From Escherichia coli (GTDB lineage Bacteria > Pseudomonadota > Gammaproteobacteria > Enterobacterales > Enterobacteriaceae), in the NCBI RefSeq assembly GCF_003334785.1, contig NZ_QOWV01000016.1: DNA of 64,000 bases; one strand, given 5' to 3'. Both the position numbers and the translations under genes were made by a program. Every line of letters begins with the position of its first letter. The stretch's first letter is position 1. Of this stretch, positions 10,545 through 12,327 are shown one piece after another. The notes below the pieces were generated by a model, which was not told the DNA's origin, searched no databases, and was given only the letters and a program-made list of their open reading frames with translations.

Positions 10545-11285
10545 ATGTTAATTAATCGCAATATTGTGGCGTTATTTGCGTTGCCTTTTATGGCAAGCGC
10601 AACTGCTTCTGAATTATCCATTGGTGCTGGTGCGGCTTATAATGAATCGCCTTATCGCGGTTATAATGAAAATACGAAGGCAATTCCGCTGATTAGTTAT
10701 GAAGGTGATACTTTTTATGTTCGTCAGACCACGTTAGGTTTTATTCTGTCGCAAAGTGAAAAAAATGAACTTAGCCTGACCGCATCCTGGATGCCGCTGG
10801 AATTTGACCCTACCGATAATGACGATTATGCCATGCAACAGCTTGATAAGCGTGATAGTACGGCTATGGCGGGGGTTGCCTGGTATCACCACGAGCGTTG
10901 GGGAACCGTGAAAGCCTCTGCAGCTGCGGACGTTCTGGATAACAGCAACGGCTGGGTGGGGGAGCTATCGGTATTCCACAAAATGCAGATAGGTCGTCTG
11001 TCGCTGACACCTGCGCTGGGCGTTCTCTATTATGACGAGAATTTCAGTGACTATTACTATGGCATTTCAGAGAGTGAGTCCCGTCGTAGCGGTCTGGCAA
11101 GTTATTCCGCGCAGGATGCCTGGGTGCCCTATGTCAGCCTGACGGCAAAATACCCGATAGGAGAGCACGTCGTATTGATGGCGAGCGCAGGATACAGCGA
11201 GCTGCCGGAAGAGATTACCGACAGCCCGATGATTGATCGTAATGAGAGTTTTACCTTTGTCACCGGGGTGAGCTGGCGTTTTTAA
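10545..11285 (+). CDS. yiaT: MipA/OmpV-family outer-membrane protein
   Basis: 246-aa ORF with signal peptide MLINRNIVALFALPFMASATA and terminal ...GVSWRF beta-barrel motif. Confidence 0.9.
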   Translation: MLINRNIVALFALPFMASATASELSIGAGAAYNESPYRGYNENTKAIPLISYEGDTFYVRQTTLGFILSQSEKNELSLTASWMPLEFDPTDNDDYAMQQLDKRDSTAMAGVAWYHHERWGTVKASAAADVLDNSNGWVGELSVFHKMQIGRLSLTPALGVLYYDENFSDYYYGISESESRRSGLASYSAQDAWVPYVSLTAKYPIGEHVVLMASAGYSELPEEITDSPMIDRNESFTFVTGVSWRF

Positions 11286-11631
11286 TTCACCGGTGGATGT
11301 CGGTGCGGCTGGTGCTCCGTCGTAATGCCACAAAGGTTGTTGCTCTGGATTGCTCTGTTCATACCGGGAACCTGGCGTCTGAATCAGGATCTTATGGCTG
11401 AACAATCCCTTGCCTTCAAATGTCGTAAATGGCGCATCGGCGGGCAGCAACAGGTTATGCAGTGACTCGACGTTGTCGGCCTGCTCCATGCAATACGGTT
11501 TAATGACGTTGGCTATTTCCGGCAGATTTTTCAGAAACATACTGGTTTAACGCCAGCAGCGTGGAAGCGGCGTTACAGCAAGGAACATATCAATTCGTAG
11601 TGCCGGGGCGATGAAGCCCCGGCGTGAGGGA

Positions 11632-12327
11632 TTACTGCCCGTAATAGGCATTGGCCCCATGCTTACGCAGGTAGTGCTTATCCAGCAGTTCGTTTTGCAT
11701 CGCAGGGAGCTGCGGCGCAAGCTGGCGCGAGAATAGACCCATATAGGCGCATTCTTCGAGTACTACGGCGTTATGCACGGCATCGGCGGCGTTTTTACCC
11801 CATGCGAACGGGCCGTGAGAATGCACCAGCACCGCCGGGATTTGTGCCGGACTCCTGCCACGTTCTTCGAAGGTTTCAATGATCACTTCGCCGGTCTGAT
11901 ATTCATATTCGCCGTTAATCTCCTCTGCGGTCATCTGTCGCGTGCAGGGGATGGCACCGTAAAAATAATCAGCGTGGGTGGTGCCCCAGGCGGGGAGATC
12001 CAGCCCGGCCTGTGACCAGATGGTGGCGTGGCGCGAGTGGGTATGCACAATACCGCCAATTTCGGCATAGCGACGGTAGAGCGCCAGATGCGTTGGTGTA
12101 TCGGAAGAGGGTTTTTTGCTGCCTTCCACCACCTTACCGCTGGCTATCTCAACCACCACCATATCGTCGGCGGTCATCACGTCGTACTCGACGCCGGAAG
12201 GTTTGATTACCATCCATTGCCGCGTTTCGTCTACCGCGCTGACATTGCCCCAGGTGAACGTCACCAGATGGTGAGCGGGAAGCGCCAGATTCGCCGCCAG
12301 CACGTCGGCTTTCAGTTGCTCTAACAT
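11632..12327 (-). CDS. sgbE: L-ribulose-5-phosphate 4-epimerase
   Basis: 231-aa ORF of the AraD/UlaF class II aldolase family, recognised. Confidence 0.9.

Follow-up and report, generated by a model that had tools for sequence, protein, structure and literature searches.

The yiaT-sgbE spacer of K-12-type Escherichia coli as a probable scar of two deletions in a GH127-transporter-regulator island

In the 64-kb stretch of Escherichia coli DNA analyzed here (the window), the genes yiaT and sgbE converge on a spacer of 346 bp at 11286..11631, as the original prediction for this DNA had it: yiaT extends to 11285, and the stop codon of sgbE occupies 11632..11634. That prediction described a minus-strand ORF and a GC-rich hairpin in the spacer, and proposed that the ORF could be either what is left of a gene that other lineages have or an unannotated small protein. 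Which of these the spacer contains is the question addressed here. The comparisons described below make it very probable that the spacer is a non-functional scar, left by two deletions in an island of GH127, transporter, and regulator genes, whose remnants have, we infer, lost their functions.

The spacer is not new. It is 100% identical, by exact string match, to positions 3750782..3751127 of strain MG1655, and the 12 kb around it are 99.95% identical to the same genome. Nor is it unannotated: MG1655 already has the pseudogenes ysaC (b4648) and ysaD (b4649) here, which the window reproduces with no sequence difference and at identical coordinates (Table 1), and which together make up 294 of the 346 bp. 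One of these, ysaC on the plus strand, did not figure in the original prediction. Product and note are both empty in the rows for ysaC and ysaD of the RefSeq MG1655 record. In K-12-type genomes, PGAP labels both fragments “incomplete” pseudogenes, ysaC as “AraC family transcriptional regulator, missing N-terminus” and ysaD as “hypothetical protein, missing N- and C-terminus.” A literature search on b4648, b4649, and ybl149 (an automatic call of the ORF, discussed below) yielded no relevant paper, and one on the names ysaC and ysaD nothing beyond an entry in a strain table, where a reporter cassette is listed as inserted between the two in one MG1655 strain (PMC12361893); this suggests that the site is treated as neutral. 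Because these features are already known from the annotation of the reference genome, they have little weight as discoveries. What the present analysis adds is their parent genes, the exact breakpoints, and their distribution in the population.

Table 1. Coordinates of the genes, pseudogenes, reading frame, deletion junctions, and hairpin at the yiaT-sgbE spacer
Feature	Window position	MG1655 position	Strand	Remarks
yiaT	10545..11285		+	converges on spacer
sgbE	11632..12327		-	stop codon 11632..11634
ysaD (b4649)	11304..11495	3750918..3751109	-	annotated pseudogene in MG1655; exact coordinate mapping
ysaC (b4648)	11499..11600	3750813..3750914	+	annotated pseudogene in MG1655
157-codon ORF	11067..11540		-	ATG start 11540..11538; accidental chimeric frame
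ORF codons 1-15				antisense to ysaC, including the ATG
ORF codons 16-79				ysaD, i.e., GH127 residues 558-621, in frame
ORF codons 80-85				leftover spacer
ORF codons 86-157				antisense to yiaT 3' end
4,021-bp deletion junction	11496..11497			left- and right-anchored alignments to loci L002 and L004
216-bp deletion junction	11307..11312			6-bp GGCTGG microhomology; island alignments
GC hairpin	11602..11623			GCCGGGGC-GATGAA-GCCCCGGC; 8-bp stem, 6-nt loop

Parent genes and deletion breakpoints

In E. coli O157:H7 SS52 (locus L002), yiaT is followed by a GH127 gene and an MFS transporter gene, both on the minus strand, and by an AraC-family regulator gene on the plus strand, with all three intact. 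The same intact GH127/MFS/AraC island adjoins sgbE in strain AGR5151. The two pseudogenes of the spacer are pieces of its outer genes. The first, ysaD, corresponds to residues 558-621 of the 656 in the GH127 protein, an internal piece with neither start nor stop; the second, ysaC, consists of the last 33 codons and the stop of the regulator gene (residues 239-271 of 271), with no start. Compared with the intact GH127 gene (L002 9230..11200), ysaD has 88.9% nucleotide identity and the same residue in 55 of 64 codons; the differences are distributed 8/4/11 over the three codon positions, in 10 synonymous and 9 non-synonymous codons. In ysaC, 32 of the 33 residues agree with those of the intact regulator (L002 12837..13652).

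The intact 656-aa GH127 protein has a full three-domain architecture (PF07944+PF20736+PF20737), in common with HypBA1 of Bifidobacterium longum (PDB 3wkw) and the Geobacillus enzyme (PDB 4qjy). It matches the latter, a solved GH127 beta-L-arabinofuranosidase, at 780 bits and HypBA1 at about 504 bits; its score against the NCBIfam model for aceric acid hydrolase is 456 bits, under the 950-bit cut-off. By comparison with these enzymes, ysaD encodes only 64 residues of the C-terminal domain. Residues 1-557 and 622-656 are missing, so that the catalytic domain (residues 12-427) is wholly deleted and only part of the C-terminal beta-sandwich domain is kept. In a Pfam search, the 157-aa product of the minus-strand ORF gave only a partial, sub-threshold match to PF20737 (residues 16-39, E = 0.034) and none to PF07944, the domain in which HypBA1 has its nucleophilic Cys and the Cys/Glu residues that bind Zn; it therefore lacks the catalytic domain expected of a functional GH127 enzyme. 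NCBIfam scans of the 157-aa and 85-aa products returned no family.

The intact 271-aa regulator matches AraC-family models over residues 38-268. The N-terminal domain, the start codon, and a complete C-terminal double helix-turn-helix (about 100 aa) are all absent from ysaC, which thus lacks the parts expected of a functional AraC/XylS-family regulator. For the transporter of the intact island, the match is to the glycoside-pentoside-hexuronide (GPH) symporter family, above cut-off. Both spacer fragments, then, have the marks of pseudogenes: homology to intact genes in syntenic position, and truncations that remove the start codon and essential domains.

Alignment to the intact island locates two deletions. 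The larger, of 4,021 bp, is blunt and without microhomology, and leaves the same gap against both island alleles (L002 and L004). Lost to it were, of the GH127 protein, residues 1-557 and, of the regulator, residues 1 to about 238, together with the entire transporter gene and the divergent promoter region. The smaller, of 216 bp, took the last 35 GH127 codons with the stop, along with most of the spacer between yiaT and the GH127 gene. In its intact O157 form (L002 9101..9229), this spacer is highly structured (-58 kcal/mol, z = -4.0), with a strong hairpin and a pair of REP-like palindromes. These structures were lost through the 216-bp deletion, and the region 3' of yiaT in the K-12 type shows no excess structure (z = +0.28).

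The following history best accounts for this arrangement. Between yiaT and sgbE, the ancestor of K-12-type E. coli would have had an island of three genes: on the minus strand, one for a homologue of GH127 beta-L-arabinofuranosidases and one for a GPH-family sugar:cation symporter; on the plus strand, transcribed divergently from these, one for an AraC-family regulator. Through the blunt deletion of 4,021 bp, GH127 codon 558 would have been joined tail-to-tail to regulator codon 238/239; through that of 216 bp, between two GGCTGG repeats, the 3' end of the GH127 gene and the REP-rich stretch by yiaT would have been lost. The deletions presumably came in this order. What was left would be ysaD (64 GH127 codons) and ysaC (33 regulator codons with the stop).

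An allele with the large deletion only (P0004) was considered as evidence for the order of events and set aside: it is known from two metagenome/SRA contigs of only about 1 kb (L010 and L011) and from none of the 5,426 complete genomes. Both contigs have the 4,021-bp junction and lack the 216-bp deletion, with a coverage of 1.57 for the ENA contig, and their GH127 fragment resembles a hybrid of the K-12-type and intact alleles. This form may have existed as an intermediate, or the contigs may be chimeras assembled from scar and island strains.

The presence of the island differs among strains, as it also might if K-12 represented the ancestral state and the GH127-MFS-AraC island had been inserted in other lineages. 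K-12, however, retains parts from inside both of the island's outer genes, in the right order and orientation, and both are truncated in mid-codon or mid-domain, a pattern that insertion cannot explain. The breakpoint alignments refute this history, and we give it practically no probability. Deletion from an intact island bears out the first of the two origins originally proposed for the ORF, a remnant of a gene from other lineages: its codons 16-79 are an in-frame fragment of a GH127 gene that is intact at this position elsewhere in E. coli.

Distribution of the scar and states of the junction

The K-12-type scar, counted as a match to the spacer over at least 80% of the query, is found in 2461 of 5426 complete E. 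coli genomes, where the median number of places is one. A further 2167 of the 5426 have a segment homologous to ysaD, with an identity of 80-95%, and in all rows among the matches listed it is annotated as the GH127 gene; the remaining complete genomes have neither scar nor segment. The intact island occupies this position in about 40% of complete E. coli genomes, and roughly 55% of E. coli genomes are without this exact arrangement and its chimeric frame. K-12 and some 45% of the E. coli genomes sequenced have lost a likely module for the uptake and hydrolysis of beta-L-arabinofuranosides, which in other strains adjoins the L-ribulose-5-phosphate epimerase operon.

The scar is one of at least five structural states of the yiaT-sgbE junction in complete E. 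coli genomes, which makes the junction a structural hotspot. Besides the K-12-type double scar, there are yiaT followed by the island, with yiaJ..sgbE deleted (O157); aldB followed by the island and sgbE, with yiaW-yiaT missing; aldB directly adjoining sgbE; and a form in which ysaD is further truncated (hit H80). The presence of GH127 has been correlated with invasiveness of IBD isolates in one study, possibly with reference to another GH127 gene (PMC11879602). Given at least five junction states, presence or absence of GH127 may simply track lineage.

Two other features of the neighborhood can be recorded here. A gene for a Fic-family protein lies between yiaY and aldB in two of the loci compared (L002 2314..3609, L003 3012..4307); in a third it is directly upstream of aldB and cut by the edge of the locus (L004 1..856). 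In O157:H7 SS52, the regulator gene is followed by a remnant of an IclR-family gene (yiaJ), and then by ysaA.

The minus-strand reading frame

The ORF, of 157 aa with an ATG start, has the position, strand, and translation given in the original prediction, with 85 codons within the spacer, and its remainder does run antisense through the yiaT 3' end. It is nevertheless an accidental chimera, whose segments are given in Table 1. Its first nucleotide and that of ysaD are 45 nt apart (11540 - 11495), so that the two are in frame. The ORF would exist because the GH127 frame was still open, ran by chance into yiaT antisense, and at some later time received an ATG by a C-to-T change in the decaying ysaC. 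All five scar genomes that were compared keep the chimeric frame open.

Its length is unremarkable. There are 57 ATG-started ORFs of at least 150 aa in the window, and the neighboring genes carry antisense ORFs of 167 and 159 aa. The claim that its codons are plausible for a gene holds weakly. In log2-odds per codon, the whole ORF scores 0.04, the ysaD segment 0.08, and the yiaT-antisense tail -0.13, against references of 0.33 +/- 0.15 for genes (64-codon windows, with the window's long ORFs as training gene proxy) and -0.20 +/- 0.25 for antisense frames; the ysaD segment falls between the two classes and is not clearly separated from either. The partly gene-like look of the ORF is due to its in-frame GH127 segment.

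A homology search had been suggested as a check on the ORF. Run with 86 aa (the 85 spacer codons and one further residue), it yielded matches in E. coli only: automatic gene callers had occasionally reported this ORF itself, and the other matches were C-terminal pieces of GH127 proteins, which argues for a remnant. One of the automatic calls, “ybl149” (P0001; NCBI/UniRef record), has 93 aa, with a tail differing from that of the 157-aa ORF. A third tail is found in P0003, of 145 aa; this version is seen in short Logan contigs only, so its ending may be an assembly artefact.

The start region does not resemble that of a gene. As had been noticed, it has no obvious Shine-Dalgarno sequence: on the minus strand, the 40 nt upstream (TGCTGTAACGCCGCTTCCACGCTGCTGGCGTTAAACCAGT, followed by ATG) contain no GGAG/AGGA-like motif, and there is an in-frame TAA 9 nt upstream. 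Opposite the ATG, on the other strand, is a His codon of what remains of the regulator gene, and the ATG falls at the 3' edge of a small stem-loop predicted at 11558..11540. It is also derived, being present in the K-12-type sublineage only; all four of the divergent scar genomes have GTG at this position. On the regulator strand, the codon is CAC in the intact regulator genes and the four divergent scar genomes, and CAT in the K-12 type. Four derived K-12-type substitutions fall within 11 nt of ysaC at this point (window 11533..11543; CGCAAACACACC to CAGAAACATACT). Besides making the ATG of the ORF, this cluster puts Gln in place of Arg in the frame of the regulator, and it strengthens the stem at 11558..11540 on the minus strand, which is small and terminator-like, with a T-rich tail after it.

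The yiaK-sgbE operon is repressed under standard conditions. Two negative results are for this reason weak evidence: neither the position nor the genes appear in the start-site profiling supplement of Stringer et al. (2021), and the 3'-end (Term-seq) tables of Adams et al. have no entry here.

If the chimeric ORF were translated, for example by read-through from sgbE, its product would be a protein of 157 aa newly arisen from a deletion scar, and the ORF a datable case of de novo birth. In K-12-type genomes the frame does begin with an ATG and stay open for 157 codons; it is on the strand of sgbE and follows that gene directly, past a hairpin with no U-tract; gene callers occasionally report it (e.g., as ybl149), and its ysaD part is monomorphic. 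Against this, the ORF has neither a ribosome-binding site nor a conserved start codon, with TAA in frame just upstream, the ATG at the edge of a stem-loop, and GTG in its place in every other scar genome compared. The automatically called versions differ in where they end (at 93 aa and, in short contigs only, at 145 aa, compared with 157), and this speaks against selection acting on the C-terminal half; the final 72 codons, antisense to yiaT, have the codon score of such sequence; and just a quarter of the beta-sandwich domain is left. The profiling supplement has no entry for it, and the ysaC/ysaD junction serves as a cassette insertion site. A translated protein is accordingly a very improbable reading of the ORF. 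It is no likelier that read-through past the hairpin when yiaK-sgbE is induced would give low-level translation, with use of the product perhaps reflected in the invariance of ysaD.

Of the two explanations first offered, then, the gene remnant is supported and the unannotated small protein is not: its ATG is a derived polymorphism, it has no Shine-Dalgarno sequence, its tails vary (as in the 93-aa P0001), start-site profiling has no entry for it, and the region was annotated before. The ORF at 11067..11540 should not be promoted to gene status.

Sequence invariance of ysaD and the GC hairpin

One property of the spacer speaks against reading it as a scar: a decaying pseudogene might be expected to vary, and ysaD does not. 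Across five scar genomes, its 192 bp contain no polymorphic site, while the flanks vary by 1-8%. About 400 bp of yiaT contain 13 such sites, 400 bp of sgbE more than 40, and ysaC, which is 102 bp long, 8. In 2459 genomes ysaD has an identity of at least 99%, yet no intact GH127 allele is more than 90.5% identical to it.

This combination of a monomorphic segment, polymorphic flanks, and near-identity in so many genomes could conceivably result from constraint by a functional RNA element in the spacer, such as an RNA derived from the sgbE 3'-UTR or an antisense regulator of yiaT. However, no Rfam family reaches its gathering score here (E <= 1 over 11000..11900), the spacer has no promoter-like site, the stretch after yiaT has no excess of structure (the z of +0.28 given above), the tables of Adams et al. 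list no 3' ends, and the arrangement itself is missing from the roughly 55% of E. coli genomes mentioned earlier. The monomorphism can moreover be explained neutrally. If the scar had a single origin, with 88-90% identity to any donor allele, its 190 bp would be too short and too divergent for recombination to import variation, while the flanks recombine freely (7-8% in sgbE). We therefore consider an RNA element highly unlikely. The invariance of ysaD likely reflects a single origin and the lack of a recombination partner, not constraint.

The divergence of ysaD from intact alleles, at ~10%, was also considered as a possible anomaly. It was rejected as such, since sgbE haplotypes themselves differ by 7-8% and a deep haplotype with some decay suffices. 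The sgbE alleles are this far apart between K-12-type and other E. coli, and even among scar genomes (compared with L003, L004, L006, and L007). This is far above the divergence of typical core genes, and suggests deep haplotypes or introgression.

The GC hairpin of the original prediction exists and lies next to the sgbE stop, as described, ending 8 nt from it; its coordinates had been placed one base too high, at 11603..11624 (see Table 1). It lies between that stop and the stop of the regulator gene or its remnant (11598..11600). It is beyond what chance would produce, with a single copy in the window and no matches in 100 shuffles, and it folds at about -22 kcal/mol (minus strand, 51-nt context), with z about -3.3 on either strand. 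The hairpin is identical in the island-bearing strain AGR5151 and thus predates the deletion, as the stem-loop that originally separated the regulator gene from the convergent sgbE.

Like the Rho-independent terminators found between convergent genes, it is a stable GC-rich stem-loop a few bases past two convergent stops. Unlike them, it has no U-tract 3' of the stem on either strand (minus ACUACGAAUUGA, plus GUGAGGGAUUAC), is not called by a terminator consensus scan, and coincides with no 3' end listed by Adams et al. With one copy in 64 kb, it is not a REP/BIME element. The one Rfam hit, a match of the hairpin to a CRISPR repeat at 19 bits for a gathering score of 35, was taken as chance. 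Most likely the hairpin would act as a stem-loop at the 3' ends of the convergent transcripts, stabilizing the mRNA of the yiaK-sgbE operon or weakly terminating its transcription. The deletion that in O157:H7 SS52 extends from part of yiaJ through sgbE ends within the loop of this hairpin, after GAT, at L002 13664/13665, corresponding to window 11612/11613.
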